Source: a virus (taxonomy: Duplodnaviria; Heunggongvirae; Uroviricota; Caudoviricetes). Taken from it: a stretch of DNA of 64,000 nt. The DNA is taken from IMG/VR virus record IMGVR_UViG_3300042401_002002, one strand, 5' to 3'. The position numbers and the translations under genes were made by a program. Positions 14,676 through 60,523 of the stretch are shown in pieces. The first letter of the stretch is position 1. Each line of letters starts with the position of its first letter. The notes beneath the pieces were generated by a model. The model worked only from the letters and a program-made list of their open reading frames with translations, was not told the origin of the DNA and did no database searches.

Positions 14676-15221
14676 TTAGAAAATATATTTTAATATTTTT
14701 TGCAATAAACTTATTTTTTTATTTTGTTTACGTTTAAATATAAAAATATTATTGGTTCTATAACTTACTGATATCAATTTATCGTATTGGAATTCAGTAA
14801 ATAATACTATTTCATCTGTTGAATCAATATATCTAGTATTGTATATCTTAAGTTTCATCTTTCAAAAACATTTAGTTTGTTAATAATATTTTTCATTCTT
14901 TTTGGGATATAAAAATATCTATTCGTGAATTTTTCTCGAATAAAAAGAAGTCCGCCTGATTCATCATCAACATGAAAACCAATATTATGTATTTTAAGTT
15001 TCATCTTGCGTATAAGATTAAACAATTAAAATATTCCATTTCAGTTAACATATCTAAATCAAATATTTCAAATGATTGTAAATTTACACTATAATTATTT
15101 ATGTCAAGTTTCATCTTCTTTTATAAATTAATAATTCATTAAATAATTCAGATTTAATATCTGAATATAAATTATGTAAATCAAATTTATAATTGGTCCA
15201 ATTCCATACATAAACTCTCAT
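14676..15221 (-). repeat. MKL micro-ORF array 1 (4 units)
   Basis: ATGs at 15221, 15114, 15004 and 14858, each overlapping the previous TGA. Example 15004-14855: MKLKIHNIGFHVDDESGGLLFIREKFTNRYFYIPKRMKNIINKLNVFER. Confidence 0.85.
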
Positions 15222-15227
15222 ATATAA

Positions 15228-15596
15228 CTAAACATTTTTCTTATAGTAACCTAATTTTCTATCAACATATTTAATTGATTGTTGAACAGTTTCTTTTTGG
15301 TTTTCTAAGTTGCACCTATTTGCTAATTGATACTCCAAATCTTTTCTAACTTCTGTTAAAATATGTAACTTAGCTTTTGTTGCTATCTTTAGTTTAACTT
15401 CATCAGAAACTTTGTGTTTTGGTGATGTTTCATCGCTTCTGTTGAACGATAACCCGTCAGCAATATCATCCATCAAAAAGTTTATATGTTCGTCTAATTG
15501 ATTAATTAATGGGTTCTTTGGGAATGTTTTGTTAAGTTCGTATAAAACTGTAACTATAGTTTTGATTCTTGATTCAATTTGCTTGATATTCTTCAT
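15228..15596 (-). CDS. Hypothetical protein
   Basis: 122-aa ORF. Confidence 0.65.
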   Translation of the reverse strand: MKNIKQIESRIKTIVTVLYELNKTFPKNPLINQLDEHINFLMDDIADGLSFNRSDETSPKHKVSDEVKLKIATKAKLHILTEVRKDLEYQLANRCNLENQKETVQQSIKYVDRKLGYYKKNV

Positions 15597-15706
15597 GGGT
15601 TAGTTGTTTTATCTTGTTAAATATAGGCTCTACGACCTATAAAGTATATTTATCGGCTGTAGAACCTATAAAAAGGTTTGTGTTAAATTAGTTTAGTATT
15701 TGTAAT

Positions 15707-16582: not shown

Positions 16583-16966
16583 TTAAACTAATCCAATTAA
16601 TTTTTTATATTCACCAGCTGTTAACAAACCTTCTCTGTTATTATCAACCAATTTAACTTTAACAATCCAGTTCTCGTAAGGATTTTCATTAATTAAACTA
16701 GGATTATCCAATATATTTTGGTTAATCTCAATAATTACACCTGAAATAGGTAAGAATAAATCAGAAACTGTTTTAACTGCTTCCACAATACCGAATTGTT
16801 CGTTTGCTTGAATCAATTGGTTTAAAGGTTTTTCAATTTCAACAAACACAATATCACCAAGTTCTTTTGAAGCAAAACTAGTAATACCGATTGTTGCTGT
16901 GTTATCTGTATCAAAATAAACAAACTCATGCTCTTTTGAATATAATAGGTTTTCTGGAATTATCAT
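16583..16966 (-). CDS. gcvH: Glycine cleavage system H protein (lipoyl carrier)
   Basis: YSKEHE, IGIT, LGDIVFVE, lipoyl-lysine motif VEAVKTVSD and INENPYENW. Confidence 0.93.
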   Translation of the reverse strand: MIIPENLLYSKEHEFVYFDTDNTATIGITSFASKELGDIVFVEIEKPLNQLIQANEQFGIVEAVKTVSDLFLPISGVIIEINQNILDNPSLINENPYENWIVKVKLVDNNREGLLTAGEYKKLIGLV

Positions 16967-16968
16967 GG

Positions 16969-17160: not shown

Positions 17161-17180
17161 ATTTATTTGATTTTTAAATA

Positions 17181-18118: not shown

Positions 18119-20445
18119 TTATGTTGCAAAAATGTTTAGTTTATTTACATCTAAAATGTAAAATATTTCACTGGTACCATTTATCGTTAGTGCATTATAA
18201 ACTCTGGAATGAATAAACCTAGTATTAGTTAGGTTCTTAATGTTTAGTTTCATATTATATAAATTGTTATTTCGTTAATCCAGCGTTCAATAACTATATT
18301 ACGATTATTTACTAAAAGGTTACTAATAGCACTGAATTGGAAGTAATAGCCGTTATTATCAATTTTAAGTTTCATCTTGCGTAAATTAATATTATGTTTC
18401 TATTTTTATTTAAAGTACCGTTTCGATTTACTAAATACCAATAAGTATCAGTATATTTGAAATTAGTAATACCTTGTTTCCAAAGTTGTTCTACTTTAAG
18501 TTTCATCTTCCGTATGTTCTAAGTGAATTTGTAATATTAATTAATTTAAAAGGATATTCACTATAACCTCTAACTAATATCTGAGTAACCATGTTGTCAA
18601 ATATATCAAATAAAAGTCTTCGAGATTTAATTTGTAATTTCATCTTTTATATATTCTAAGTGAATTTTTGTAATTTGTTAAGTTATCATTTAGACTATAA
18701 CCTTGAACTAAAATTTCAGCAACTGTACTATTTTCTTGAATATTTTCGTTACATCTGAAATTTAAACTTAATGAGTTTTCTATTATTAATTTCATCTTAC
18801 ATATATTTTAAGTGAATCTTTATAATTTATAAATTTAAAAGTTTTATCATAAAAATCACTTTTAATTAATATATATGCTATTATGTTGTCATCAACATTA
18901 AAACAAAAACCTAAATCTGTTTTATATACTATATCTAATTTCATCTTTTACAAATTATTAGTTCGTCAGTATTATTAAAACAATTATTAAATGTTTTAAT
19001 TTTACCTATGCTATAGAAATTATAACTACTTGGATAGTATTTTAATTTTATTATTACTAATTTCATCTTTTGAATACATATAATTTATTTGACCAAATAT
19101 TTTTATATTTAATTATTTCAGAAATAGATATAGTTATCTCATCAGTATAATATCTAAAATACAATTGTTTGTTTAACATACATGTTATGAGTTTCATCTT
19201 CTAAATATAGTTAATTGATAGTAGAACAACATTTTATTATTTACAATATCAGTTATATTATAACAGGTAAGATTACTATTATTTCTAAAACACATAATTC
19301 CTATTTTATTTTGTATTAGTAATTTCATCTTGCAAAGATAGTAATTAAATTTATAAATTCAGCTTTTTCTTTTATAACTTCTTTAAAATTATAACTGTTA
19401 TTGGTACTTCGTGAATTAGTTAACCTACAATTCCAGGTTGATAAATTATCAATTCTAAGTTTCATCTTTTGAATACAGCTATGTTGTTATAAAAAAACTT
19501 ATCAACTATTATTTCAGATAAACAATAAGCTGTTGTAGCAGTTCCAGTATTTTTAAGATACCAACTAGTTTTATCGTATATTTTAAGTTTCATCTTCTAA
19601 ATATTAATAATCGGTTATAATATTTAAAATCTATGATAAATTCTAATTCATCTAAATTAAACTTAATTAAATGATAATTTTGGCTTGTTAAGCGGTTATA
19701 AGAAATTTTAAGTTTCATCTTTTATATTTTAATTCTATTGTTAAACACAGATTCATCAACAATTTGTGAGCATTCTTCAGAACGTACATCTATGCTTTTA
19801 GACCAGTCAAATCTAATTCCAAGATTTAATCTATTCTTTAAATTATGCACGACCTCAATAGCTTTCCATTCTTCATCTGTTAGTTCTTTATTAAACAAAT
19901 CAACAATCGGTCCTGTTGTACCTATTATTTCTTCTTCTGGTTCATTAATTGGTAAAGGTTCATTAACAGTTAAGATAGTTAGGTGTTTGTGACGTTTGTT
20001 TAAATATTTATTGATTTCTTTTAAGATAATATTTGTACCAATGAAATATTGTTGCCCTTTGTTAACTTCTGTTTCGTTATCTAGAACATAATTGTAATAA
20101 ATTGTTACTTCGTAGTCACCTTGGTGACTTGTAACTGAACAATCAGTTATTTTTGAATTGGAATTAAGTATTATATTTTTCATCTTTCATATATTAATAA
20201 TTGATTAAAATCTTTAACGTCTATGTTAAATTTTAATTCATATAAATCAAACTTAATTAAAGAATAATTTTGGCTTGTTAAACGTTCGTAAGAAATTTCA
20301 AGTTTCATCTTGCAAATATTGTTATAGTATTTAACCATTCAAGATTTCCTGAATTAAATTGTTTAATAGTAAAAGTAAACATACAATTATTACTATCATT
20401 TCTAAGATAATAATCTTTAGAATAATCATATAATCTAAGTTTCAT
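18119..20445 (-). repeat. MKL micro-ORF array 2 (14 units, interrupted by a 153-aa gene)
   Basis: ATGs at 20445, 20308, 19718, 19593, 19465, 19328, 19197, 19066, 18944, 18795, 18643, 18506, 18375 and 18253. Units are 126-156 nt open frames, mostly ending in the next unit's ATGA. Confidence 0.9.
19722..20183 (-). CDS. Hypothetical protein embedded in micro-ORF array 2
   Basis: 153-aa ORF whose ATG overlaps the TGA of the upstream micro-ORF. Confidence 0.7.
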   Translation of the reverse strand: MKNIILNSNSKITDCSVTSHQGDYEVTIYYNYVLDNETEVNKGQQYFIGTNIILKEINKYLNKRHKHLTILTVNEPLPINEPEEEIIGTTGPIVDLFNKELTDEEWKAIEVVHNLKNRLNLGIRFDWSKSIDVRSEECSQIVDESVFNNRIKI

Positions 20446-21060: not shown

Positions 21061-22032
21061 TTATCTTCTAAATATGTAAATATTATTAACCAAATCATTT
21101 TTATTAACTAATTTATCTCGTATTCCGTTTAAAACCATTAATTAATTCTTTTTTAATAAATGAATCATAGTGGTTAAATTGGTAATCAGATTCTGTATCA
21201 ATTTTAAGTTTCATCTTGGAAATGACCAAATTATATTTTTAGTTCTTTTAATATCTTTAACCAAAGGTATAAACCAACCGTCAATACAGAATACAGTAAC
21301 TTGATAAGAATTGATATTAAGTTTCATATCTTTTTAAGTTATTTAAATGTTCAATATCCTGTGGTGTTCCTGCAAAGTTAATTTGTTCAAACCAACTAAT
21401 CTTTTGATTATCAGTTAAATAATCATCGTGATAACTGTAAACAACATCAAAGTTTATTGGAAATCTTTGAAATTGAGTCCTTAGTTCTACAGGCAATTCA
21501 CTAAACAAATATTCTACATCATTTACTAATAAACTAAATTTATCATTTAAGAAATCAATAATTGTAGATAATCTTTGTTTTCCATCAATAATAAGTAATT
21601 GTTTGTACTTATGATTATCATTAAAAGGATGATGAAATATTGCAGATATATTTGGAATAAACAATTCTTTGAATATTGATTTAATCAATTCACGTTTTTG
21701 TTCTAAATTCCAACAAAAATCTCGCTGTAAATTCTTATTTTTGGTTGGTAACCAAACATTAAAATCAATCTCAGGTACATATCGCTTATCAACTAATTGA
21801 CGTAAACTATAAGAACAGTGATTCTTTTTTATCTTATTCTTAAGTTCAAACTTTGGTGCTATATCAGCTAATGTTATTACAGGTTTCATCTTTTTAGTAT
21901 CTTTATATCATTGAAAGGTAAAGTAATAGAGTCATGTCTTTTATTACCTATTAAAATATGTTTAACTAATGAGTTATCATGGTTAAAATTAACATGAAAA
22001 ACTGTATCATTATATTCTATCTTAAGTTTCAT
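21061..22032 (-). repeat. MKL micro-ORF array 3 (units at 22032, 21327 and a frameshifted unit at 21214) flanking the DUF262 gene
   Basis: Same junction motif and termini as the other arrays. Confidence 0.75.
21317..21889 (-). CDS. DUF262 / ParB-Srx-like domain protein
   Basis: LQRDFCW and IIDGKQRLSTI motifs. Confidence 0.8.
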   Translation of the reverse strand: MKPVITLADIAPKFELKNKIKKNHCSYSLRQLVDKRYVPEIDFNVWLPTKNKNLQRDFCWNLEQKRELIKSIFKELFIPNISAIFHHPFNDNHKYKQLLIIDGKQRLSTIIDFLNDKFSLLVNDVEYLFSELPVELRTQFQRFPINFDVVYSYHDDYLTDNQKISWFEQINFAGTPQDIEHLNNLKRYET

Positions 22033-22122
22033 CTTTCTAATATTTCAACAAAACTAAACAATTTATTCATTTAAAACAAATATATTTTTTAATAAATTTT
22101 TACTATTTAAAATAAAAACAAA

Positions 22123-22332
22123 ATGACAAATCAAAAAGAAACACTAGGCGTTGAAGCTAATTGCAAAATAATTAACGGAAAATCAATAATTATAAGTGGT
22201 GACATACATGATATCATGTTAAGTTACGTTAAATCTAAAGGAACTAAAATTTCATATTTCACTGAACAGTTATTTTTAGAATTCTTAAAAACTAATAATA
22301 TTGATGTAAATCAATTTAGAAAAAACAAATAA
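22123..22332 (+). CDS. Small protein, possibly ribbon-helix-helix DNA-binding
   Basis: KSIIISGDIHDIMLSYVK..GTKISYFTEQL pattern. Preceded by CTATTTA. Confidence 0.5.
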   Translation: MTNQKETLGVEANCKIINGKSIIISGDIHDIMLSYVKSKGTKISYFTEQLFLEFLKTNNIDVNQFRKNK

Positions 22333-22335
22333 TTA

Positions 22336-22911
22336 ATGAAAAAAAAAATATTTTTAGGGTTTGATATTTCAACCACTTGTATAGGTATTTCATTATTTGA
22401 TGAACAAGGTATTTTAATTAAAGTAGAACACCTGGTCCTTAAACCAGATAAAGACGTGCTTCCGGAACATAGAATTTTTGCAAAGGCAAATATGTTTGAA
22501 TCTTTTATTCAAAAGTTTAAAGAATATGAAGTCGTTAAGATATTCATTGAGGAACCACTTGTTATGTCAAATAACATACATACATCAAATCTTTTAATGA
22601 AATTTAATGGTATATGTTCATATATCTTACTAAATCATTTATTAGTTATACCTGATTATATATCAGTTCATAATATTCGTGTAGCATTATGTCCAGAATT
22701 AATTAGAACTGAAATTAAAAAAGGTGTTCAAAAAGAAATCTTGTCATTCCCTAAAGATATTAAAGGAAAAGAATACATCTTTACCAAGATACAAACACTT
22801 TATAAAGATATTGATTGGGTTAAAGATAAAAAAGGTCAGTTATCCAAATTCAATTACGATATGTCAGATGCAATCGCAGTTGGTTTAGCAGGTTTAAAAA
22901 TATTCTGTTAA
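22336..22911 (+). CDS. RuvC-like Holliday junction resolvase
   Basis: LGFDISTTCIG, IFIEEP and YDMSDAIAVG acidic catalytic pattern. Confidence 0.8.
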   Translation: MKKKIFLGFDISTTCIGISLFDEQGILIKVEHLVLKPDKDVLPEHRIFAKANMFESFIQKFKEYEVVKIFIEEPLVMSNNIHTSNLLMKFNGICSYILLNHLLVIPDYISVHNIRVALCPELIRTEIKKGVQKEILSFPKDIKGKEYIFTKIQTLYKDIDWVKDKKGQLSKFNYDMSDAIAVGLAGLKIFC

Positions 22912-22954
22912 AATAAAACCTCTTCTTAAATTAATAGGAAGAGGTTTTTTGTTT

Positions 22955-26236: not shown

Positions 26237-29107
26237 TTATTTTCTATAAAATATAAAAATTTTATCGTAATCAAACATTTGTATAGCGGTTTCAATATTA
26301 ATTATATTGTAATCACTTGTCGTATAAGTTGATAATGTATTACTTGGGTCAAATATTTTTAATTTCATCTTCTATAAATATTTAATTGACCAATATGTGG
26401 TTGGTCGAGATAATAAAATTTTCCTCTAATTATGTTTATATCTTTTTCATTAAATACTTTAAGATAATCAATATGAAACCTCAAATTATGTAAACCTAAA
26501 TGTTTTAATATGTTTTGTCTTGCAAGTTTCATCTTCTTCTATAAAACGTTAATAAAATATTTCTTTTCCAAAGTTTTATAATGTCAGATAATTCCAATTC
26601 TGAACCATCAGTTACAACCCTATTATACACAAAATAATTTAATTGTTTACCTACTGCAAGTTTCATCTTCTGTAAATTGTTAAAGTGTTTAACCAAAGTC
26701 TTGTGTCGATTTCAAATTCACCCAGTAAATATGAACAACAACTAGTCAAATTAAATCGTGTTTTGTTATATCTTGGTTCTTCTATTTTAAGTTTCATCTT
26801 CTGTAAATTGAAATTACATTTATCCTGTGCTTCATTACTACCTCAATTTTACCTGTCGCTAAACATTTAGCTAATTCACGTTCCGAAAAACCTTCTCCAA
26901 AGTTTTGTAATCTAGTTATCTTAAGTTTCATCTCAAATAAATCACCAATTCGTTTACAAATATATCAATATTTTTTATAACATAACTAATATTAACTGAT
27001 TTTTTTAATACATGCTCATTATTAAACGTTATTGATTTATTAAAATAACCTGGTTTGGAAGCATCTGTTATTGAGAGTTTCATCTTGAATGAATAATTAA
27101 TCTATTTGTATATGTTAATTTTGTGCGAAATCCTTTGCGAGTTATTGTAGAAATAATTGAACTACTTTGTACCTTAATTAAAATAGGATGTATTTTAAGT
27201 TTCATCTTACAAATATATTTATTGTATTATTTAAAGGATAACCAAATGATATCACTAAAGTATTAACTGAACTATATAATTTAGTTGTATTAAATTTAGT
27301 TGGTACTAGAGTATGCATGTTATCAATGTGGTTAAAAACCATGTCTGTTATATTTACTATCTTAAGTTTCATCTTCTACTATAAATTAAAATTATATTTT
27401 TGTCGTATGGATTTGTTTCGTAACCCACATACAGACTGTGAAGTTCCTGAAAACTTATATAATACGCTGAGTTACTTACATCAAATATCTTAAGTTTCAT
27501 AAACGTACATAATATTTAGTTCTTTATTTTCTATGTCAAATTGATGGTAACTATTATCAATTAATACTGTATATATCCAACTAGTACTAAATGGTCCAGG
27601 TGATAAGTAAAGTTTAAGTTTCATCTTACATATAACATTAATTCATTGCGAATGCTTTTAAAATATTTAATTTTTGATACTGTTATTATATTAAAATAAC
27701 TTGAGTTAATGAATTTCACACCTACAAAACAAGTTATTTCTAATCTCATTTTGAAAGAATTATTAATGTGTTTAAATTTATTAATTTAACTTGAAAACCT
27801 TTACGTGTTAATACAGGTATGATTGAACTATATTGAATCTTAGTTAGAACAGGGTGTATTTTAAGTTTCATCTTTTGTATATTTTTATTCTATTAAAATC
27901 ATCGTCAAACATCATTGCGAATTCACCTGTTTCATTATGGTAACCTATTGTCCAAATTACATTAAATTTCTCATAACCATAAATGTCGTGTTTTTCTATT
28001 AATATTTTCATCTTTCACAAATATAAATTAAGTTAGTTATTTTATTATCTATTTTATGATTTGAATTTAGTACTAAATATTTATATAACCAACTATCATT
28101 AAATATATATTTAGAATGTTCTGAATAATCATGTAATTTAAGTTTCATCTTTTGTAAACTGTTATAATGTTACAGTATTCTTCACGTTGAAATAACGACC
28201 AAGTTCTAGCTCCGTTTATTAACATCCAACCTAATGATGTTAAATTAAAATTTTGATGATGTTGATTAAACATTTTGTCAATATTAAGTTTCATCTTTCG
28301 CTATTTTTATAATAAACGACAATATTGTTTTTGGACCTGTAGTCAAATGAACTGAACGGATAAACAAAATATAATAATTTGTTTAATGTAGTATCCCAAA
28401 CAGAATGACCCAATGTTCTTTTGTCTATGTTTAATTTCATCTTACATTTATTACAATATAATTTAAATCTTCATTATTAATATCAAAACTACCTGGTTTA
28501 ATTAAACATTCACAATGCCAAGTGTTTTTAAAGGTAAGGTAAGCATCATGCGAGCAATCGTATATTTTAAGTTTCATCTTTTGTAAATTTCTATATGGTT
28601 ACAAAAACCATTATCTAAATTAAATTTCACTTTTTCAGTTAATAAATTATATATAGTACTATGTTCAAAATTTTTATAAACATGATTAGTAAATTTCAAT
28701 ATTTTAAGTTTCATCTTCTATAAACTGTTATAACATTTAAATCATCTTTATCAATCGTATAATTATGAATACCTAGAAATACATGACATATCCAAGTTTC
28801 ATTAAACATTTTACTGTAATTCACTACTTTAAGTTTCATCTTTTGTAAATTTTAATATGATTTAAATCCCCGGAAATAATACCAAATTTATTTTGAGTAA
28901 GTAATTCAAATTGCCATTCGTTTTGGAACCTATATTTTGAATAGTTTCTTATTGTTAATCTCATCTACTGTAAATAATTACTTCATTAAGAAACTCATAT
29001 TTGTTAGTGATTACCCAGTTAATATTCATCTCAACACTTTTGATGTTATTATTTGTAAATCTAAGGTTTGTGTTGTTATTACCTATATTATCTATTCCAA
29101 GTTTCAT
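26237..29107 (-). repeat. MKL micro-ORF array 4 (21 consecutive units)
   Basis: ATGs at 29107, 28964, 28839, 28714, 28577, 28440, 28294, 28148, 28011, 27871, 27749, 27624, 27500, 27372, 27205, 27083, 26931, 26797, 26666, 26532 and 26368. Example 26797-26663: MKLKIEEPRYNKTRFNLTSCCSYLLGEFEIDTRLWLNTLTIYRR. Confidence 0.92.
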
Positions 29108-29127
29108 AATCATTCATTTTATATTTA

Positions 29128-29135
29128 CAAAACTA
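29128..29135 (-). promoter_or_regulatory. Bacteroidota-type -7 promoter box (TAnnTTTG) heading array 4
   Basis: TAGTTTTG about 20 nt upstream of the first ATG. Equivalent boxes at 22049, 38052, 56877 and 60733 head other array-containing operons. Confidence 0.55.
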
Positions 29136-29182
29136 ACATTTTTTATTTGAATAAACAAAACTATTTACAATAAAATATTATT

Positions 29183-35675: not shown

Positions 35676-35712
35676 AAAAAACCTCTCCTAAAATTAATTA
35701 AGAGAGGTTTTT
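35676..35712. terminator. Member of a conserved bidirectional hairpin terminator family (AAAACCTCTC...GAGAGGTTTT)
   Basis: Related hairpins at about 13639, 14637, 22915, 29386, 42365, 47052, 52798 and 58956, mostly between convergent genes. Confidence 0.75.
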
Positions 35713-37584
35713 ATTTCGTAAAAATAGTTATCGAATCAGATAGAAATCTTTTGTTGGTTAATATCCATTGGTACCAAAAATTATTAAATTTATGATATTG
35801 GTAGTGTTTTATTATGTTAAGTTTCATCTTTTAAATGTTAAAATTTTATTGTAGTATTCTTTTGAACCTGTAAAATCTTCAATATACCACTCATCGTGAT
35901 TATTATCTAATAGTTGATTTCCAACAAACTTCCAGTTATTAGGTATTCTTATAAGTTTCATCTCCAATAAATAATTAATCGGTTTAATCTGAAAGATTCA
36001 TTTCTATTAAGTAATAATATTTCTAAACTACTACTATCATTTATACCTGATATATTCAAAAACCTTAATGTAAATTTTGTGTTTTTAAGTTTCATCTTGG
36101 AAATGTTATTAATTTGTTATGCTTAGTATTATCTATAAGTTCACTAAGACACCAATTTTCAGTTAAATTTTGGAAAACATCTTTTTTCTCGCCAACAAAT
36201 TTCCACTTATGATTAGTTATATTAAGTTTCATCTTGATAACGATATAAGTTGATTATAAAACATTTTATAATCTGTAATAGTTTGAATAAAACTTCTTCC
36301 ATCACTATATATAATATCGAATTTAGTATAAAATTTCTCTCTTTTAAGTTTCATCTCCAGTAAATATAAATTCTATTATGTACTTTATTATTTAAATCAT
36401 AATTAGGTTGAAACTCATTAAACCAATCTTTATTAAATCTGGTTGAATTATTTAGTTGTATTTTCATCTTAGTAATGTTATTATTGTATCATACAAACCA
36501 ATTGTTATTAATTTTTCATACGTAATATAGCCTACTGAAACATTACAGACGAGTTTTAAATTTATATTTGTTCTTACCAATTTCATTTCAATATCTTTTT
36601 AATTTCATTAAAACTAAACGCTGGTGATACATCTGTGTAATTTAAACCAATGTTTGCTCTACAGAAGATACCTTCATACATTTCAACGTTATCTATTGGG
36701 AATATATGTGAAACACAATCACGTTTTATATTGTGTTTAGTTAGTAATTCTTTTAGTAAAACTCTCAATGTAGAATATTGTTCTTTTGTGTAGTTATGCC
36801 ACAAAGTTTGGTCCATGTATTTCTTTCTGAATACTTCATCACTTGGTACCAATACATTATACCAGTTTTCAAAAGTATCATTATCAACTTCTTTCAACCA
36901 ACCTAGATTTTCTAAACAAATTGTTATGTTATAACTATCAATTTTATTAATACCTGTAATCTTGTTATGAAATTTAGTATCCATAAATTGCGTTAAAACA
37001 CCTTCTCTGTTGATTATATAGTGTGGTTGAATAACTTCATGTTGCAAAGATAATCTGTCCGTGTAGTCATGTTCTTTCATCAAAGAATTGATTAACATAA
37101 TTCTATCCTTTGGTGTTTCTTTGGTTGTTATTTCTGGTTTCATCTTGTAAAGGTTATTAGTACATCATTCCACTTATAGTTAATTATAGTTTTTAAACTA
37201 TAATAACCATCTGAATAATTAATATTATTAGTAGTTATTAATTTAGCTATAACTCTGTTTCTTATGTAAAGTTTCATCTTTTTAAAATTGTAATTACATT
37301 AATAAAGGAAGAATATGTTTGTATTATTTCTTCTATTGTCCAAGTTCTTATATTAGAAACATTACCAATTGAATATCCGTAATAATTAAAATCCTCGTTA
37401 GATTTATCATGTTTAGAAATATCATGTATTGTAAGTTTCATGTTAAGTTATAATATCTTGTTTCATCTTTTATAAATATAACTAATTTATTTCTATGTTC
37501 CCAATTATGATTTTTCCATTCTCTAGTTAATACTAACGTATTAATATGAAAATAATGTCCAGTATTTAATATTTTAAGTTTCAT
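35711..37584 (-). repeat. MKL micro-ORF array 5 (10 units around an amidase-like gene)
   Basis: ATGs at 37584, 37441, 37277, 36586, 36467, 36354, 36232, 36095, 35961 and 35827. Confidence 0.88.
36583..37143 (-). CDS. N-acetylmuramoyl-L-alanine amidase-like protein (Amidase_2 fold)
   Basis: PHYIINREG, ITICLENLG, YTKEQY, CVSH and DVSPAF. The first Zn-ligand His is not evident. Confidence 0.7.
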   Translation of the reverse strand: MKPEITTKETPKDRIMLINSLMKEHDYTDRLSLQHEVIQPHYIINREGVLTQFMDTKFHNKITGINKIDSYNITICLENLGWLKEVDNDTFENWYNVLVPSDEVFRKKYMDQTLWHNYTKEQYSTLRVLLKELLTKHNIKRDCVSHIFPIDNVEMYEGIFCRANIGLNYTDVSPAFSFNEIKKILK

Positions 37585-38024
37585 ATCTTATTTCTTTTAA
37601 GTCTTCTAGCACTAACTTCTTTTTGTGTTGTTGCAAAGGTAACATTTTTTTTCCATTTACAAACATATTCTTTATTTATTCTTGTAATTTCTTTTTCATT
37701 TGGTAATGTTACTGTAACTGGTTCTTCTTTTATAACAGCCATAATACCATATATTCTACAAGCTTTTCTTATTTTTTTAAGATAAACAAAATGTATCTCT
37801 GTTCTATGGTATTCATTATCTATAATATAACCTTTACTTTTTAAACCTTTGATATTACCGTTTTTATAGTATTCAGTTATAAATTCAACACCTATTTTAT
37901 ATATTGATGTTAATTTAACTTTTTTGGTGTGTATTTTTTTATTTTCTTTATAACGTATGGTTATTACTATATTCTCATTCTCATCCCATTTGATTGGATG
38001 ATTAACTTTGACTCTTTTATACAT
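37581..38024 (-). CDS. Basic hypothetical protein
   Basis: 147-aa ORF whose stop overlaps the first micro-ORF ATG. Confidence 0.65.
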   Translation of the reverse strand: MYKRVKVNHPIKWDENENIVITIRYKENKKIHTKKVKLTSIYKIGVEFITEYYKNGNIKGLKSKGYIIDNEYHRTEIHFVYLKKIRKACRIYGIMAVIKEEPVTVTLPNEKEITRINKEYVCKWKKNVTFATTQKEVSARRLKRNKI

Positions 38025-38162
38025 ATTTATAATGATTATTTTTATTAATTACAAAATTAATATTATTTTTAATTTAAACAAATAATTTTGTTGATTTATT
38101 GAAACCTTTTATTTAGATTTGCGTTACAATTAGAAATGTTCATATAAACATGTAAAATAGTT

Positions 38163-50000: not shown

Positions 50001-50172
50001 GATATTGCGTTTGTTGGTATTCTAATTTTTTATCTTCTAATTCTTCTTTAGAAGATGCTGTAATAAGTTCTTTTTTTTCTATTGGTGTAACAAATTGATT
50101 ATTATCATGTTTATTAACCTTTCCTGTTAATCTATTATAGGCTGATTCCCATAAACTAGTTTTTTCTGCCAT
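47089..50172 (-). CDS. Portal protein (T4 gp20-like) with an intein
   Basis: WVRNT^CKFGDNF, VAHFRL, PYGTSVL, EDAQLVYR and DIEYLRDNLFTGLGVP. Confidence 0.88.
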   Translation of the reverse strand: MAEKTSLWESAYNRLTGKVNKHDNNQFVTPIEKKELITASSKEELEDKKLEYQQTQYLYKQHSHIIQQNDMQAVQANALRLPAYVEYKMMESYPIIAQALNVLAEEATTIGDRGQMLNIYSNNNRLKEDLEYLFYEILDINTNLPFWVRNTPIRENSMIPLLDGTECTIKELSDRIKLGEEIWSYSIQDKTHAIVPSKIVWCDLTRKNSELYRVTLDDGTYIDTTPDHEYMLRNGSFKRADELTPGQSLMPYYTKKSNKKQDQIGGYEKVFNPSTGKYKFTHRMVAHECVRDLEYEKTVNERFDTHHIDFNKLNNHPHNLQRLTNSEHFKIHTDLCKQVLHSPEITKKRLEGIHKYLTSDARRQRMSKEMTGIYPKYFNEYNNSDLHSEHNEIRTKKMLENWSNEEFVAKTKKGMTIEISDSCLNYITNIIASNENYVGINKLAQLLKIDTEFINLFKETYTLRKDIIKSINHATLTNVLKRKTELNYFDYVLSIKPTLILDKDYIRAKAIFLGKTKVVNHKVVSVVKLEETSDVYCLEAVGPNGEHDRHNFPVLGKDINGSYSRTSGVFLSNCKFGDNFLFVMTEADKGVVNVKQLPTSEIERQEKIINGKPTTKFIWQLGGQEYTNFQVAHFRLLGDENTLPYGTSVLAPVRMYYRMLKMSEDAQLVYRATNAARVKVVKVPTGNMDPADIPMFMRQTISNFKKSQIVDPATGQINYKYSPASGVEDIFVAVKNAGDPSPIDILEGADNLDKIADIEYLRDNLFTGLGVPKNRLNFSGSGEGGGDNNAQTDIVFSRKVMRIQNAMIQELNKIALIHLFLLGYSDDDIRDYKLTLNNPSTQSEILKIEAFTQKVDLYVKLTTSNETGLKPMSETNAKKLIFGLSADEILDDIKQQMIENVVGDEIKNAGLILKKSGIFNDLEEYIKRGIITSSLDPAQVNGEQPAEPGADAMGGPMDAGNNPAGGAAPQGEQEPFQLKEKYLYRANKTNNELVQLLKEVEDKTSLSQNSNETVQLLNEFLNNNNKL
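48454..49719 (-). mobile_element. 422-aa intein with an HNH homing endonuclease in the portal gene
   Basis: Begins PIRENSMIPLLDG; block B TTPDH; HNH HHIDFNKLNNHPHNL; block F VYCLEA; ends GVFLSN before Cys. Confidence 0.85.
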
Positions 50173-52747: not shown

Positions 52748-53480
52748 AATTATAACTCGCCAAATCTATAGTATTTTTACCACATTTGGCGAAATATAAA
52801 AACCTCTCTTATTAATTTAGGGGAGGTTTTTATTTTTGAATAACAATATTTTATTGAAAAACCTCTCTTCATCAGATAAATTTCTTAAATTTAATTGATT
52901 GATAGAGAGGTAAATCCAATTAACTGTATTGAAAGTACTATTAAAACCTGTTTTATAGGTTATTATTATGTTAAGTTTCATAAACTATTAATTTTGTTTG
53001 AATATAAACAAACTTTTTCTGTTATGATTATTTTTTATGAATGTTATCACATCAATGTTGTGAAAACCGTTAACATTTAGATTTAAACCTGTAAGAATAA
53101 AATCATAATCTTCTAAATTAAATATTTTAAGTTTCATCTTAAAAAGATTATTAGTTTGTTATTGTCAAATTTAAATAATTTACCACCATACCATTTTTGA
53201 ATGCCAAAATAAAACCAATGGGTTTTATCAAATGGGTCAAAGTTCTGTGTGGGTTTATCAACTTGTAATTTCATCTTTTTAATATATAAATTCTATCTTT
53301 AGATAATGCGTTAATAGGTTCAGTTTTGTTGTATGCACCAAATATAAATTCAGTCATTAGTAATTCTCCTTGTTTGACATGAAAAACTAGATTATTGCAA
53401 ATGTAGTATTGTAATTTCATCTTTTAAATATAATTATTTTCCCGTTATAATAAATTTTTTGTGAAATTATTTCAAACAAA

Positions 53481-54895
53481 TTATGTCCTAAAAACTATAC
53501 AAATTATTAAAATCTATACAATTAATTTTATAAAAGGATTGGATTTGTTGACACATATTTCAACTCGAATACGTCCCTTACTTTTATTGGGTTGAACAAT
53601 AATCCACTATCAATTATCTTACTAACGTAAGAATCAAAGACTACTTTTCTCATTATGTTAACTGCTCCGTTAACATCTGCGTTTATCAACCCTTTGGCTG
53701 ATTGAAACAAACCACGTTGAACTCTTTTGTTTACTTTAAAGAACCCATTCGGTATCGCTTCGCCATACTTATACAATTTCTCTAATATCAAACTATCTGT
53801 TTTTGAGGTATAACTTTCTTCTGTTTCAACTACTTTTATACCCACCATTTCACACTTATATTTAATCTTATTTAAGAGATTCAAATAAGAAATGTAACAA
53901 AACTTTTGGTTATTAATTCTACCAATATCAATGGAGTCCTTCCATTGTTTGTTGTAACCAACTATTAAATTACCTATCTTATTATCTACCAAATAATCTA
54001 CAATGTACCTACTTACCTTGTGATATATATCATTCAATGTGTTCTCTCTATCTACATATAAATCTTTGATTTGTTCTGTTAGACCTTTTATTTTTTGTTT
54101 ATCTTTAATTGAAGTTAATCTAGCTAATTCTTTGTTAAAGAACTGATTGTAACTTTTAATCTGATTACCGCTAAGTAAAACAGGGTTAGTTAATGAACTA
54201 ACCAAAGTTACTAAGTTATTAACACCTAAGTCAATTGAAGCGTGTTCATCGTAGTTAACATCTTTATTTTCAATATGTTTTTCATAAACAATTTCAACTT
54301 TGATGTAATTCTTTTTAGGAATCAACCTAACTTGATTAAAGTTGATTATATCTTTTTTGTATTTATCAAACTGTGGTACAGCTATTTTTAATGTTTTAGA
54401 TAAATGTATGTATCCATCATGTTTAATAATACATGATTGATTTGGATAAATTAAGTTAGATAAACTATTTTTACGTTTAAAATTAGGTAATTTAGGTTTA
54501 CCTTTATATTTAGTCGGGTTCTTTGACCAATCTCTAATAGCAGCAATGTAAGATTTAACATCTTGTTCAAGAACCTTTAATGTTTGTTGAGCAACTTGTG
54601 CTTTAAGTAATCTATAATTAACAGTACCTTCTAAATTAGTTTTACATTTCATTAACACATCTAACTGTTTATAAAACAAAAACTTACCTTCGTTATTAAG
54701 GTTTGTTTTAACTTCATAAAGAGCCTGATTGTAAAGGTTGTTAGCAACTTTACAAAGTTCAGTTAGATGAGTAGCTGTATTAATGTCAAATGTGTAAACT
54801 AATCTCATTTATTGTGTTATTAAATGTTATTTATTATAAATAGTAAAAACTATTAAATAATTTGATATATAGAATAAATTCTATATATTTGTGTG
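53481..54895 (-). mobile_element. tnpB-only IS200/IS605-family element (IS1341-like)
   Basis: Removing 53481-54895 restores an intact micro-ORF. Left-end hairpin ATATATAGAAT-AA-ATTCTATATAT at 54865-54888. No tnpA in the window. Confidence 0.85.
53528..54808 (-). CDS. tnpB: TnpB RNA-guided endonuclease
   Basis: NNLYNQA, KPKLPNFK, RuvC-I IDLGVNNL, EESYTSK and RuvC-III NADVNGAVNI. Confidence 0.92.
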   Translation of the reverse strand: MRLVYTFDINTATHLTELCKVANNLYNQALYEVKTNLNNEGKFLFYKQLDVLMKCKTNLEGTVNYRLLKAQVAQQTLKVLEQDVKSYIAAIRDWSKNPTKYKGKPKLPNFKRKNSLSNLIYPNQSCIIKHDGYIHLSKTLKIAVPQFDKYKKDIINFNQVRLIPKKNYIKVEIVYEKHIENKDVNYDEHASIDLGVNNLVTLVSSLTNPVLLSGNQIKSYNQFFNKELARLTSIKDKQKIKGLTEQIKDLYVDRENTLNDIYHKVSRYIVDYLVDNKIGNLIVGYNKQWKDSIDIGRINNQKFCYISYLNLLNKIKYKCEMVGIKVVETEESYTSKTDSLILEKLYKYGEAIPNGFFKVNKRVQRGLFQSAKGLINADVNGAVNIMRKVVFDSYVSKIIDSGLLFNPIKVRDVFELKYVSTNPILL

Positions 54896-55285
54896 TTATA
54901 TGTTTTTTCATCACTTCTATAACCGAATTTTGCTGAAGTGGTTAATAATTGTAATTTCATCTTTCAAAAGTCAATAACCAATTAATATGTATTTCTTTAC
55001 GTTCAAGTAATTCATCTAAACAATAAGCAAAACTGCTTGTATCGTTTTTAAATTTAAACATTAAATTGTATTTTGTTTGTAATTTCATGTTCATCTATTT
55101 TAAAATAATAAATTACGATTAAATATATGTAATTTATTTAAATCATTTTTTATTAAGTTAATATTTATTTTTCTTGTAATCTGATTAAATAAATCATCAT
55201 ATTTATTGAAATATTTATACATAACAACATTCCCACGTCTCGTTCTGATATAATATATATCTGGGATTATTTTAAGTTTCATCTT

Positions 55286-55948
55286 CTAATAAGGGTAAAA
55301 TATTTCTTCTGTTTCTATTTCAACATCTTCAAATAACTTAAGTCTTTCTTTAACCGAAAAACCGTTTCCATCTGTTGGATTTATTCTTCCATTACTTGCA
55401 AGAAATTTATAGACACTATGGTAACCTATAAAACCTGCTGATAGAATTCCTGCTTTGGTTATTTTAACACCTTTAATTTTCTTACCAACATACTTACGTA
55501 TTGATTCTTTTAAATATCTATGTTCTAGTGTAAATAAATATTCTTTTATAACCTGGTCCTGTTGTTTTTCTGTAAACAAGGTTGTATCAAATATTTGAAC
55601 ATGACCCAACCATTCATCTTTAATTGTTTTAATAGACCTTTTAATTTTTTTGGTGTTAATCTCTTTAAAACCTAATTCATTTAAACTATTAACCTGGAAT
55701 TGATATTTACCAATACAACCAAATCTGTTTATTATATTTGGTCTATATCTACTTTCTAAATAAGCATTCTTTGATAAGAATGAATCAATTGTTATTATGT
55801 TCGGTTCTTCTATATGTTTTAACATATAAATAAACTGTTTATTAGTAGTTTTATATGTGTTAGCATATACTTTGTTAATTGTTCTATTGTTAGTTGCTAG
55901 TAACACTATTAATAACATTAACTTAAATTTTATAATCATCTTTAACAT
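55286..55948 (-). CDS. Lysozyme-like/transglycosylase-fold protein with an N-terminal hydrophobic anchor
   Basis: LESRY..INRFGCIGKYQF and QQDQ motifs. Confidence 0.6.
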   Translation of the reverse strand: MLKMIIKFKLMLLIVLLATNNRTINKVYANTYKTTNKQFIYMLKHIEEPNIITIDSFLSKNAYLESRYRPNIINRFGCIGKYQFQVNSLNELGFKEINTKKIKRSIKTIKDEWLGHVQIFDTTLFTEKQQDQVIKEYLFTLEHRYLKESIRKYVGKKIKGVKITKAGILSAGFIGYHSVYKFLASNGRINPTDGNGFSVKERLKLFEDVEIETEEIFYPY

Positions 55949-56952
55949 ATTCTTTTATTTTGGTTTAACATTATCCTTCTATAACGTAAATATAGTTATA
56001 AAGGTTTCGTAATTTACAAAATAAATTTGAGAAAACCTAGATATCTGATAAATTTATTTTTCAAGTTTCATAATCGATGAAAGACTATTAGTCTATTTGA
56101 GTAAGGTATTTTCGCTGTTATTATGTGGTTTTCTAAAACCTTTTCTGTAAAGAACCACCATTTTAAGTTTATTTTTTCAAGTTTCATTTTATCTATAAAA
56201 TATATGTAAAATATTTAAATTTTTATATCTTATAGAGTTATAAAGATAAAAATCGTAAACATCTTTAGTTAATAGTAAACTACTACGTTCTATGTTAAGT
56301 TTCATCTTCTGTAGGTTAATATTTTGTTAATATAAGGTTTTGGTATATAATAATTTGGTTGTTGTTCAACTAAATATTCAGCAAAAACTGAACGATTTGG
56401 TTTAAAACAATCAACAAGTGGGTTAAGTATAATTAATTTCATCTACTTAAGATTGTTAATTTATTTTTATTAAAAACAAAATTATCAATTAGTTCATCCA
56501 AACAAATAACAGAACTATCTTTGATATTTTCATGTTGAATAAATTTAAATCCTGAAATGTTAGAAAAATTATTAACCTGAAGTTTCATCTTTTGTAAATT
56601 TTTAAATAATTATGTACTGATTTAGACCCAATATTGAAATATTCTCTGTTAATAAGATAGTTGCAAATTTTATTACTATCTAACCTAAAGTGGATATATA
56701 AATTAACTATTTCTAATCTCATCTTTTGTATATTGATATATTATTTATATGTATTATAGTAGTAACTATATCTAATCCTAAAATATTTATACTTTTGTAA
56801 AGATTGTTGTTGTTATCAAACGGTATGTTTTGATTTTTGAATATAAATAATTTCATGTACTACTATTTTACTACAACAAATCTAATTATAATTTTTAATT
56901 AATCCAACTATTTATTTAAAATACTCTATTTAATTTAAACAAAATTTATAAC

Positions 56953-58926
56953 ATGCAAAATAAAAAACAATTAACAACTGAGGAATTGAGAGAAAGATTC
57001 TTGTTTTTATCTGGTGGTGACACTAAAAAGAATCTAAATGAATCGGTTGTAACATCAAATAGTACGTCTAAGCTATTAAAATATGAAAGAATGGCAGATG
57101 GTAAGGTTTATGGTATTGTACAAGAAGGACAAAAATTTTATATTAAAGTTTGTTCAGCTCCATCAACCAATGTATTGAATGTATCTGATTTTGTTTATTT
57201 AGGTGGTTCAATGGATAATGAGAGATTATATGAAAAATATGATTCTTATAATAAAGTTTTAACACGTTTTCACGGTAAAAAAGTGGCTTTGAATGAAACA
57301 TTTGGTCGTTTAAATGAATCAGATGATAAAGATGAATTTGAACCAATAGATGAAGAATTTGAATTAAATGGAAAAAAATACAATAGTAAATCATTTGACT
57401 CTGAAGATGAAGTTAATAATTTTTTAGAAAAAAATGACGAGTATGGTGTTATCGGTAAAAAAGGTGATAAAATATTTGTAGCTAAAAAATCAGACAAAGG
57501 TGAAGTTAATGAAGAAATTCCTTTAAATAAAGATGTTGATGCTAAAAAAGGTGAAACTATCGTACCAGCACCTGCTGAAACAACACCTGCTCCAGTAGAA
57601 ACACCTGTATCTGAACCAACAACACCAGTAGAAGCACCTGCTGCTCCTGTTTCTGCTGATGTAACTTCAGAACCAGAAGCTGTTGATAATACAGATATTG
57701 CCGATTATAACCCAGAAAATTCTACAACACCTGCTCCAGCACCTTCTGCTGATTCAGCTCCTGAAGCAAGTACAGATGTTCCAGCAACAGATACTGTAGA
57801 CGCACCTGTAGATAGTGAATCAAACACTGAAGGTTCAGACGATACAGTTTCTGAAATTCAATCATTATTAGGTAAATTAGGTGCTGAATTTAGAAAATTA
57901 CCTGAAGTTGATGCAACAACTGCTAAATCAGCAATCAATAATATTATTTCTTCAACTAAATCAGGAATCGAAAAATTAGATGATAAAGATAAAGAAGAAA
58001 TTAAAAAACGTATTGATAAAAACGGTGAAAAGATTGATGAATCAGAGAATATTGATGAAGCTTACGGTGATGAAAAAACTGGTGCTTATAAATATAAAGG
58101 TTATACAGTAAAAGTTGTTGATGTAAACGGTAAACGTGAAGTTAGTATTGCGGATGGTAAAAGTTCACCAATAACCGTTAATAAAGAAAATAAACCATTT
58201 AAAGATAGTAGTGAAGCTAATGACTATATTAATAAAAATTTAGATTCATTAGATGAAGAAGTTGAATCAACTGATGATGAGTTAGATGCTGAAACTATTA
58301 ACGAAATCACTGAATTATGTGGAATTGATTCTAAAGAAGTTGAAGAAAAACTTAACGAAGCAATTAAAACACCTTATGGTAAGTATTTGGTTAAAAAACT
58401 CATTAAAGAAGAAATGAGTAGATATCAAAGTGATGATATTGTTGCTGAAAATGATGATAAGAAAGAGGTTGAAGGTGGTTATTATAGATTTAACCCATCA
58501 ACTAAAACTTTTCAAACAACTATGATTAATAAAGAAAATGAACCGTATCCAGGTGAAGAATTTGATAAAGAAGATGATGCAATTAATCATTTAAAAAATT
58601 CAGTTACTGAACCTGTTCAAGAATCAAAATATCAAAAATATTTGGCGGCTAAAAAAAACAAATTAGTTAAAGAAGATGATGTAGTTAATAATCCAACACC
58701 TGATATACAAAAACAATTTGATGATGAAGAAAATGAAGGTTTACCTGCTGAAATCGTTGACTTATATAATAAAGGTGTTAATTTAGTACGTACTTATAAA
58801 AACTCTAAAAAAGAACACTATTATCCTATGATTATTGAAATAGTAAGAAAACTTAGAGATGCTGGTCATAGTGATAAAGCTAAAAAACTTTTACAAATGG
58901 CTAACCAGGCTATACCTAGAGCATAA
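56953..58926 (+). CDS. Acidic putative head/scaffold-associated protein with a Pro/Ala/Glu/Thr linker
   Basis: ADGKVYGIVQEGQKFYIK and many LNE/IDE/VNE motifs. CTATTTA lies upstream. Confidence 0.55.
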   Translation: MQNKKQLTTEELRERFLFLSGGDTKKNLNESVVTSNSTSKLLKYERMADGKVYGIVQEGQKFYIKVCSAPSTNVLNVSDFVYLGGSMDNERLYEKYDSYNKVLTRFHGKKVALNETFGRLNESDDKDEFEPIDEEFELNGKKYNSKSFDSEDEVNNFLEKNDEYGVIGKKGDKIFVAKKSDKGEVNEEIPLNKDVDAKKGETIVPAPAETTPAPVETPVSEPTTPVEAPAAPVSADVTSEPEAVDNTDIADYNPENSTTPAPAPSADSAPEASTDVPATDTVDAPVDSESNTEGSDDTVSEIQSLLGKLGAEFRKLPEVDATTAKSAINNIISSTKSGIEKLDDKDKEEIKKRIDKNGEKIDESENIDEAYGDEKTGAYKYKGYTVKVVDVNGKREVSIADGKSSPITVNKENKPFKDSSEANDYINKNLDSLDEEVESTDDELDAETINEITELCGIDSKEVEEKLNEAIKTPYGKYLVKKLIKEEMSRYQSDDIVAENDDKKEVEGGYYRFNPSTKTFQTTMINKENEPYPGEEFDKEDDAINHLKNSVTEPVQESKYQKYLAAKKNKLVKEDDVVNNPTPDIQKQFDDEENEGLPAEIVDLYNKGVNLVRTYKNSKKEHYYPMIIEIVRKLRDAGHSDKAKKLLQMANQAIPRA

Positions 58927-58994
58927 TTTTTGTCTGTTTTAATTTTGTTTTGTTTAAAAAAACCTCTCTTATTAATTTAAGAGAGGTTTTTTGT

Positions 58995-60523
58995 TTATCT
59001 ATTAAAAATATTTAGTTTGTTTAAACTATTTCGTGAACTATTCAATAAATCGCTTAGACCGTAGGTTAATGCTGATGATTTATTATTAAATTTAAAATTT
59101 TTAGGATATATTACTATTGAAAGTTTCATCTTCTAAATATTGTTAATCGGTTTTTATTTATTTCTAAAAAATAATCTGACGATTGATAGTCACTTTTTAA
59201 TTTAACTAATAATTGGTTCCATTTATCTACAGTAAAGTTTTTAAATTTATAACCTGTGATTGTTTTTTCTATTTTAAGTTTCATCTTCCGATAATATATA
59301 AATGGTTTAACATAGGATATATGTGATAACTATCACCACGATAATCTACTGAAATCTCAAGTCCGTAAGACTGATATATTAAAGAATTTATCTTTAATGT
59401 ACTGTTATCTTGTTTTTTAAGTTTCATCTTAATAAAATTATTATTTTATTTTTCTCAAATTCGGTTAATTCTATATTATTATACAATCTGAACATTCTAC
59501 AATAAACAAAATTAGTATTATTGAAGAACATAGGTTGTTTTGGGTTAGTTTTGAAAATGAGAAGTTTCATCTTTTACCTAATATTAATAATCTATTAACT
59601 GTATGTATTAAATGTAAATCTACACGTTGTTTTTTATAAAAAAGAATAATTGTTTCATTTATAGTATGAAACTTAATATCTACATTATGGTTGATTAAAA
59701 GTTTCATAATCTATCCAATTCAAAATAAACATAATCAAATTCATTCTTTTCATCAGCAATACCTTTACCGACAACTGTTTGTTTAAATTTATCATTGAAT
59801 AATAAATTTAGGTCAATTTCACTATCAAATTCTTCAACAACTGTTTCAATTAATGTTAAGTAAACTTTGGTACATAAAGGAATAGTTTGTTTATATATTT
59901 CAGCACCACCTATAAGAAATATTTCTTTTGTTGGGTAATATACTTCTGAAATATCAATCGCTTTAGCTATTGTATCTACAATAAACAAATTATCATGTTT
60001 TAATTGTAAATGTTCTAAGTTAGATACATTTCTAGTGATAACAATATTAATTCTGTTAGGTAGTGGTTTTGAACCTAATGATTCAAATGTCTTTCTCCCC
60101 ATAATTACAACATTATCTGTTGTTAATTTTTTGAACCTTTGTAGGTCATTTGATTGTTTGAATAACAATTGGTTGTTATTGCCAATTGCACCGTTTTTGG
60201 AGATTGCTAGAATAAGTTTCATCTTGTAAATATTATTAAAATATTGGGTTTTTTCCTTAAATTTTTAATACAGTTGCAAATTTTTATTTCGATATGAGTA
60301 GAATTCATTATAGGGAATAATTCTACCATATACCATTTATAAATATTAGTTATTTTATTATCAAATAATTGAACTTTTAATTTCATCTTGCGAAGATAAA
60401 TAATTGATTTCTTTTAAAGACCGTTACATTTTCTCTGTTTCCAATATTTAAATTTTTATACCAAATTTCTTTATTATTTGAAATAATTACTACCCAATTA
60501 AAACTTGTTATATCTAATTTCAT
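58995..60523 (-). repeat. MKL micro-ORF array 7 (7 units around DHFR)
   Basis: ATGs at 60523, 60386, 59707, 59570, 59427, 59284 and 59129. Confidence 0.85.
59704..60222 (-). CDS. folA: Dihydrofolate reductase
   Basis: IGNNNQL, DLQRFKKLT, VIMGRKTFESLGSKPLPNRINIVITR and IGGAEIY. Confidence 0.95.
   Translation of the reverse strand: MKLILAISKNGAIGNNNQLLFKQSNDLQRFKKLTTDNVVIMGRKTFESLGSKPLPNRINIVITRNVSNLEHLQLKHDNLFIVDTIAKAIDISEVYYPTKEIFLIGGAEIYKQTIPLCTKVYLTLIETVVEEFDSEIDLNLLFNDKFKQTVVGKGIADEKNEFDYVYFELDRL

Follow-up and report, generated by a model that had tools for sequence, protein, structure and literature searches.

Gene shuffling in the hyperplastic regions of T4-type phages has been ascribed to PeSLs, intergenic cassettes that pair a sigma-70-like early promoter with a stem-loop terminator (Arbiol et al. 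2010, PMC2839356; Comeau et al. 2014, PMC4122927). The DNA analyzed here, a window of 64,000 nucleotides (nt) that corresponds to the minus strand of the 69.9-kb IMG/VR viral record IMGVR_UViG_3300042401_002002 (CheckV completeness 38%), carries seven arrays of chained genes, hereafter units, that encode proteins of ~45 residues. As in PeSL regions, small non-essential open reading frames (ORFs) of unassigned role are clustered between the core genes of a T4-like genome, the arrays being flanked by a T4-type portal (PF07230), gp25, ribonucleotide reductase (RNR), dihydrofolate reductase (DHFR), and ligase. Also as in PeSL regions, a short conserved motif lies beside each variable ORF, and the insertions, deletions, and replacements that distinguish close relatives end there (here 21 of 22 homology-block ends and an eight-unit deletion). 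In contrast, the motif of the window lies within coding sequence, as a stop/start overlap with the terminal codons, and comprises no promoter, no hairpin, and no intergenic DNA, while the ORFs that it flanks belong to one protein family instead of being unrelated ORFans. By analogy, turnover of the family appears to work like PeSL shuffling, yet the family falls outside the PeSL class, since the motif that its units share is a stop/start junction within coding sequence in place of a promoter-terminator cassette. Phage proteins of less than 100 residues that act on host targets have been reviewed (PMC11323111). The arrays represent a separate family, with no sequence match to those, and differ from them by having 71 copies in 64 kb, with fixed N- and C-terminal ends, a putative clasp, around a unique core. 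The multigene families (MGFs) of large DNA viruses of eukaryotes, such as the African swine fever virus MGF and the poxvirus host-range families, form a so-called genomic accordion of genes encoding 100-500 residues, each with its own promoter. They share with the arrays the tandem diverged paralogs, the location in variable regions, the strain-dependent copy number and content, and a presumed interaction with the host, whereas the units of the window are 45 residues long, translationally chained, and alike in their termini alone.

The window firmly establishes an undescribed, lineage-specific, and greatly expanded family of ~45-residue proteins, whose genes are real, chained, and modular. A first-pass annotation, made from the sequence without database searches, had reported a motif recurring in seven blocks on a single strand, with about 70 stop-free micro-ORFs in between, and this description stands. 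The sequence AAGATGAAACTTA (at most one mismatch) is found 42 times in the window, 42 of 42 on the minus strand, as compared with 0.53 expected. An ORF scan returns 71 units of 33-60 codons (median 45) that start with M-[KR]-[LI], all within the seven blocks, and three MKL ORFs on the plus strand across the entire window. The start codon is ATG in all 71 units, and the previously noticed overlap of a TGA stop with the next ATG is present, as a 4-nt ATGA, at 53 of the 58 adjacent junctions; TGA closes 59 of 71 units and TAA 25 of 31 large genes. Together, the units amount to 9,694 nt (15.1% of the window). ORFs of at least 33 residues take up 98.6% of array sequence on the minus strand (9.0 kb in this test) and 3.3% on the plus strand, against a mean of 6.4% and a maximum of 14% in 200 dinucleotide shuffles, hence open frames far exceed those of shuffled sequence. 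The arrays and the genes embedded in them are laid out as follows.

14676..15221 (-): array 1, four or five chained units, the last of which starts with MRV, ending at a stem-loop terminator
14637-14667: stem-loop at the end of array 1, probably a bidirectional terminator
18119..20445 (-): array 2, 12 chained units (18119-19718), an embedded gene, and then two units
19722-20183 (-): gene for a 153-residue protein of unassigned family, inside array 2
21061..22032 (-): array 3, head unit (21886-22032), embedded GmrSD_N gene, unit 21211-21327, and a pseudogene unit
21317-21889 (-): GmrSD_N (DUF262) gene, 190 residues, embedded in the ATGA chain of array 3
26237..29113 (-): array 4, 21 chained units, the longest run
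35711..37584 (-): array 5, three units, an embedded Amidase_2 gene (36583-37143), and then seven units; shares an operon with gene 37581-38024, which lies behind the promoter box 38052-38082
52817..56856 (-): array 6, six units (56068-56856), three units (54853-55282), and four units (52817-53420)
55286-55948 (-): gene for a 220-residue protein within array 6
53528-54808 (-): IS605-type tnpB inserted in array 6, with OrfB_IS605 and a Cas12f1-like TNB domain
58995..60523 (-): array 7, two units, the DHFR gene (59704-60222), and then five units; its operon starts behind the promoter box 60733-60764

Units are alike only in the first five and the last eight residues, with the consensus M-K-L-x-I at the N-terminus and N-x-[LI]-x-I-[YF]-x-R at the C-terminus, which agrees with the M-K-L-[KNQ]-I and N-x-[LI]-x-I-[FY]-x-R ends proposed at first pass. 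Lysine occupies position 2 in 68 of 71 units, leucine position 3 in 69 of 71, and isoleucine position 5 in 50 of 71, while 58 units end with an arginine (-1) and, among these, a tyrosine or phenylalanine is found at -3 in 41, an isoleucine at -4 in 37, a leucine or isoleucine at -6 in 54, and an asparagine at -8 in 47. Once the termini are stripped, the mean identity between cores is 0.176, against 0.168 ± 0.051 for shuffled cores; the middles are thus mostly unrelated, as had been claimed. Only two recent duplicate pairs are present (69% and 63% identical). One weak anchor is detected in the cores, an excess of phenylalanine at residues 12-13; 14 units have in common an F..[WYF]..hh motif (4.2 ± 2.0 in shuffled cores). 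In the marine relatives described below, core similarity within an array is clearer than in the window.

Comparison with a related strain shows that these frames are selected as protein. Strain L054, a 14.5-kb contig (ENA ERZ28613030), is syntenic with window positions 38074-24861 at 88-93% nucleotide identity. Nei-Gojobori analysis of 15 ungapped orthologous units (664 codons) between the window and this strain gives a ratio of nonsynonymous to synonymous substitution rates (dN/dS) of 0.386 in frame (bootstrap 95% confidence interval (CI) 0.26-0.57), the orthologs being chosen at 60% amino-acid identity or more, which biases dN downward. The same DNA read off frame returns 0.91 and 0.76, and the large genes 0.19. 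Within the units, dN/dS is 0.16 for the termini (first five and last eight codons) and 0.48 for the cores (CI 0.30-0.74); in a positive-selection test, the recent paralog pairs yield 0.80 and 0.38, from too few sites to carry a conclusion. Orthologous units are under purifying, not diversifying, selection. At C-terminal positions -4, -6, and -8 and at Phe -3, synonymous codons are used at genome-typical frequencies, so that this motif is conserved as protein, and Leu3 is encoded from two codon families (CTT 47, TTA 18). That the units form a real coding family is, in our estimate, nearly certain. A frameshift polyprotein was considered and ruled out by the invariant ATG at the junctions; no canonical slippery heptamer was seen in the printed junction sequences, which were not scanned systematically.

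The same measurements dispose of a non-coding repeat array (CRISPR-like, satellite, or structured RNA) in which the open frames would be incidental. A 13-nt repeat separated by variable intervals of 110-170 nt has this appearance, and the 11-mer AGATGAAACTT also ends a widespread clustered regularly interspaced short palindromic repeat (CRISPR; ...CCCAC..GTTCAGATGAAAC) in unrelated metagenome contigs (five loci), for which reason pattern scans pick up CRISPR arrays as false positives. However, open frames are 15-fold over shuffles, the ATG is invariant, ATGA chaining prevails, and selection is frame-specific. Moreover, Rfam reports no match for the array sequence, array RNA, folded over a 901-nt piece, has less structure than its shuffles (z = +2.0). 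The core repeat of ~13-17 nt is also much shorter than the 23-50-nt repeats of non-coding CRISPR arrays, and the intervals of 110-170 nt, each an in-frame ORF under selection, are much longer than their 25-70-nt spacers. ORF coverage relative to shuffles and the frame-specific dN/dS refute this explanation, whose probability is negligible.

What the proteins look like is indicated by composition and modeling. The units are soluble proteins in which no 17-residue window exceeds a hydrophobicity of 1.41 and no membrane segment is present, and they are mostly basic (median isoelectric point 9.6, net charge +4), the charge coming mainly from the conserved ends. AlphaFold2, supplied with the 71 paralogs as alignment, models unit 28714-28839 with a mean predicted local distance difference test score (pLDDT) of 90.2 as a strand (residues 4-11), a helix (12-22), and a second strand (36-41). 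Since the two terminal strands are the only ones in this model, they presumably pair with each other, as the first-pass annotation had suggested for the termini. A second unit (26797-26931) is modeled at a pLDDT of 66 with its central helix only, and the strand-helix-strand fold is thus no more than suggestive. Homodimer prediction with two copies and alignment A1 scores 0.01, which is evidence neither for nor against a dimer.

Such composition raises the question of whether the units could act collectively, as small basic nucleic-acid-binding or ribosome- or chaperone-associated proteins that coat DNA or RNA or are packaged as internal proteins, in which case only the charge and the clasp would matter. 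The basic character, the lack of a membrane segment, the cores being no more alike than shuffled sequence, and the tens of units that would share one transcript all agree with this idea. Nevertheless, the positive charge comes mostly from the termini (K2, K4, K/R at -2, R at -1) and the cores are near neutral, the core dN/dS of 0.48 (CI 0.30-0.74) is not predicted by a requirement on composition only, and close strains differ in repertoire. We therefore consider a collective role unlikely.

Database searches return no characterized family, as the first-pass annotation had supposed. Pfam and PHROGs, queried with 10 units, give nothing better than E = 0.048, and a profile search against 1.84 billion representative proteins (E < 1e-3) returns 14 matches, all of them the window's own proteins or near-strain variants; a search for homologous proteins with alignment A1 likewise reports only the window's own. 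Regarding structure, Foldseek finds no match of the unit model in the PDB (best E = 2.9), VIA-align against 48,161 chains reports no Z of 2 or more, and an ESM Atlas structure search gives template modeling (TM) scores of at most 0.44. An ESM Atlas feature search proposed DUF3781 (0.80), which is at chance level under the search's own calibration and was rejected. The family profile has no match in the nearest portal relatives (uncultured phage LR756508.1, Flavobacterium phage immuto, and Microcystis phage Mel-JY01), and no relatives were found in IMG/VR through the neighboring 656-residue protein. Scanning IMG/VR for an exact 17-mer gives 42 single matches and no stretch with a second match, and the two-junction pattern gives three matches there, all unrelated. 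In metagenome contigs, the two-junction DNA pattern matches at least 120 stretches; the multi-copy matches that were inspected are CRISPR repeats ending ...GTTCAGATGAAAC or simple tandem repeats, and the true relatives among the matches listed are three marine-metagenome contigs (UPTL01; GC 0.24-0.25) with arrays of 4-8 units. One of these, L092, is syntenic with window positions 22027-22953 at 78% nucleotide identity, but past the promoter only the ~20-45-nt junctions match, all cores being different.

Regarding expression, the first-pass annotation placed several arrays downstream of host-type TAnnTTTG boxes, and four array-bearing operons do have them. The pattern TTTG-N17-23-TAnnTTTG, which we take to be the Bacteroidota sigma-A -33/-7 consensus, occurs 19 times in the window (9.0 ± 2.8 expected), at operon heads; boxes lie directly upstream of the operons carrying arrays 3, 4, 5, and 7, and a single copy falls inside any array. 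Two boxes stand immediately before arrays, in addition to those listed above for arrays 5 and 7.

22049..22080 (-): promoter box (TTTG-N20-TAGTTTTG), 17 nt upstream of the first ATG of array 3
29128..29159 (-): promoter box (TTTG-N20-TAGTTTTG) heading array 4

Sigma-70-like sites are not enriched (122 against 130 in shuffles), and no terminator-like site is found at the unit junctions. Shine-Dalgarno-like tetramers are seen ahead of one of the 71 units and none of the 48 larger genes, and the start regions are A-rich; both features are typical of translation in Bacteroidota. The promoter boxes, the lack of Shine-Dalgarno sites, and a distant portal similarity to a Flavobacterium phage point to a host that is probably a Bacteroidota bacterium.

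The junction itself is constrained beyond the needs of the protein. In the example at 28830..28842 (-), the module (A)AG-ATGA-AACTTA combines the Arg-stop of one unit with the Met-Lys-Leu of the next. From -2 to +14 (~17 nt, AGATGAAACTTAAAATA), nucleotide constraint exceeds what the encoded residues require: Lys is AAA in 68 of 68 cases (genome 86%), Leu is CTT in 68% (genome 14%, p = 6e-25), Ile is ATA in 78% (genome 33%, p = 1e-10), and Arg is AGA in 58 of 58 (genome 72%). The bias could be either a restart signal or homogenization by recombination. Read with the following AAA, the Leu3 CTT contains ACT-TAA, which places a third-frame stop just after each start. Some ordinary genes also belong to this ATGA chain and have the same aagATGAAAC start context, namely those of DHFR, Amidase_2, the GmrSD_N/DUF262 protein, and the 153-residue ORF, and the DHFR gene of array 7 (59704-60222) has an ATGA overlap on either side.

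A junction constrained at the nucleotide level, together with useful genes lying in the ATGA chain, whole units gained or lost between strains, and a dN/dS of 0.80 for one recent duplicate pair, would suit selfish or neutral filler: cassettes that spread via junction homology and stay open only to keep ribosomes flowing, without polarity, to the DHFR and amidase genes, their peptides being inert. We judge this improbable, as in-frame dN/dS is 0.39 (cores 0.48) against 0.76-0.91 off frame, the C-terminal motif is kept as protein with synonymous usage left free, the genome lacks the near-identical copies that recent spread would leave (69% and 63% identity in the closest paralog pairs), and 9.7 kb of filler, or 15% of the window, would be costly for a packaged genome.

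Between strains, the arrays change by whole units. Of the 21 units of array 4, strain L054 keeps 11, whose amino-acid identity is 63-93%; interspersed with them are units lacking any counterpart of more than 50% identity. Its array also shows three inserted units, several losses, and a changed order (units 14 and 16). In array 5, the same strain carries three extra units exactly between conserved neighbors, plus one swap. Several orthologous units are 93-100% identical. Ends of homology blocks fall within 30 nt of a unit ATG in 21 of 22 cases, against 38% for random positions, although BLAST blocks tend to end in the junction since all units share it, so that this result shows the exchange of whole units and not the exact crossover point. 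The synonymous rate (dS) of neighboring units ranges from 0 to 0.78, a spread characteristic of a mosaic made by recombination and not of proteins evolving faster. In a third strain (run X6), a joint 18231->19320 in array 2 removes 1,088 nt, i.e. eight units, both ends of the deletion falling in codons 3-8 of two units. Variation of the arrays looks like an ordinary process in which cassettes arise, are lost, and recombine where their junctions are homologous, as happens in T4-type hyperplastic regions, and we regard modular turnover based on the junction as likely.

The layout of repeats and variable cassettes, with its precise exchange at the unit level, could also suggest diversification or capture driven by an enzyme, whether mutagenesis as in diversity-generating retroelements, integron-like capture, or cutting at the junction. 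A possible agent for the last is the 884-residue protein encoded directly upstream of array 4, the largest, at 29425-32079 (-), which displays several helix-turn-helix domains and a homing-endonuclease-like PHROG match, and which is unusually diverged between strains (78% amino-acid identity and dS 0.62, its neighbors being 94-100% identical); it has no sequence match in the PDB. Yet no reverse transcriptase, tyrosine or serine recombinase, or integron integrase is found among the 48 ORFs of at least 100 residues in the window (64 kb of up to ~300 kb). As compared with a diversity-generating retroelement, no template/variable-repeat pair is present and the cores, instead of being A-site variants of one template, are unrelated; as compared with an integron cassette array, there are no hairpins between units and the genes overlap by 4 nt. 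Orthologous cores are, furthermore, stable between strains, several units being 93-100% identical. An enzyme-driven process is very improbable. There is no evidence of an active diversifier in the window, and the term diversification system used in the first-pass annotation is not supported in view of purifying selection and ordinary cassette turnover; what stood of its interpretation are the real, chained small-protein genes with fixed ends and variable middles, their belonging to no described family, and their placement on one strand behind host-type promoters.

With a probability of roughly 60%, the arrays represent a lineage-specific small-protein multigene family residing in T4-type hyperplastic regions, whose members are probably early binders directed at the host. 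Taken by itself, the binder function is tentative and falls short of an even chance; a role as modulators of the host or of competitors is suggested by the early host-type promoters, the accessory-gene neighbors, the strain-specific repertoire, and the unit-specific cores under purifying selection. The arrays are long runs without internal Shine-Dalgarno sites or, one box aside, promoters, in operons shared with accessory and nucleotide-metabolism genes. They would thus be expressed as long early polycistronic mRNAs on which ribosomes terminate and re-initiate from unit to unit at the ATGA, and a single early transcript may give rise to 10-20 different mini-proteins in roughly equal amounts. 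The conserved termini would form a two-stranded clasp displaying a helix and loop specific to each unit. At the DNA level, the conserved junction (~17-40 nt) could provide homology for unequal or inter-phage recombination, by which units are added, removed, and exchanged, and would take the role that PeSL promoter-terminator cassettes have in T4-type hyperplastic regions. Each unit may have a host or competitor target of its own, which it would bind or modulate in early infection, for takeover or counter-defense, and such individual targets would explain why each core is kept by selection while the repertoire varies between strains.

Several points weigh against this multigene-family reading with its host-directed binders. 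The median net charge of +4 fits nucleic-acid binding equally well, the second modeled unit shows its central helix only, and no unit resembles a known anti-defense or takeover protein. The junction bias could reflect a translation-restart signal and not recombination, the shared junction by itself attracts the ends of BLAST blocks, and the identity threshold set for the orthologs lowers dN. Lastly, the Bacteroidota host is inferred solely from the promoter boxes, the absence of Shine-Dalgarno sites, and the distant similarity to a Flavobacterium phage portal. A further-reaching version would see the arrays as a natural phage combinatorial library of mini-binders built on a two-strand clasp, the junction serving at once as restart, clasp, and recombination site, and the phage population reshuffling a pool of 45-residue host-targeting or counter-defense proteins between co-infecting phages; this we hold to be doubtful.

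Some embedded elements show traces of decay or insertion. The pseudogene unit of array 3 (21061-21214, -) starts with MKLKID..., meets an early stop, and continues as ...NNIYIFRR in another frame, the sole clear frameshift among ~72 units. The GmrSD_N protein of the same array corresponds to the N-terminal domain alone of a type IV restriction enzyme. Next to the tnpB of array 6, the 35-residue unit 54853-54960 is without the C-terminal motif normally present, as though the insertion had cut it short. The stem-loop at the end of array 1 and another at 22915-22948 (+) are of the same kind (AAAACCTCT...AGAGGTTTT followed by a T-run) and lie at convergent operon ends, both probably being bidirectional terminators.

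The phage itself is an uncultured, very AT-rich, T4-like phage of lakes. The window has a GC content of ~25% and holds no tRNA genes, and its gene content is that of a distant T4-like myovirus, with a portal (PF07230), gp25, the large and small RNR subunits, DHFR, an ATP-dependent ligase, and an IS605-type TnpB. The best portal matches are 30-35% identical and belong to an uncultured 484-kb phage, Microcystis phage Mel-JY01, and Flavobacterium phage immuto; the window DNA is present in lake, freshwater, and estuary metagenomes. One micro-protein of the window is also known from a contig that measures up to 308,574 nt, which makes a jumbo phage probable. The portal gene (47089-50172, -) is interrupted by an intein splicing domain (residues 159-540), and the RNR large subunit gene (62274-63962, -) has an intein-like insertion too. 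A glycine cleavage system H protein (16583-16966, -; PF01597, E = 1e-35) is a possible auxiliary metabolic gene or lipoyl carrier. The plus-strand blocks encode a protein with a phage ProQ C-terminal-like domain (6353-6865, +) and a YspA/SLOG-family protein (PF10686; 46536-46892, +).

If the peptides are made, about a seventh of the window DNA encodes dozens of distinct 45-residue proteins that standard annotation may have missed and that match no database. The scale, 71 units, is unusual, as is the architecture of fixed ends and free middles, and the family offers a tractable natural experiment on micro-protein evolution, with ends fixed, middles free, and middles still selected. It could also yield new small inhibitors directed at the functions or defenses of Bacteroidota hosts. 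For T4-type phages more generally, modular shuffling in hyperplastic regions can use an in-frame coding junction in place of promoter-terminator cassettes, and seemingly empty regions of AT-rich jumbo phage genomes can be gene-dense.

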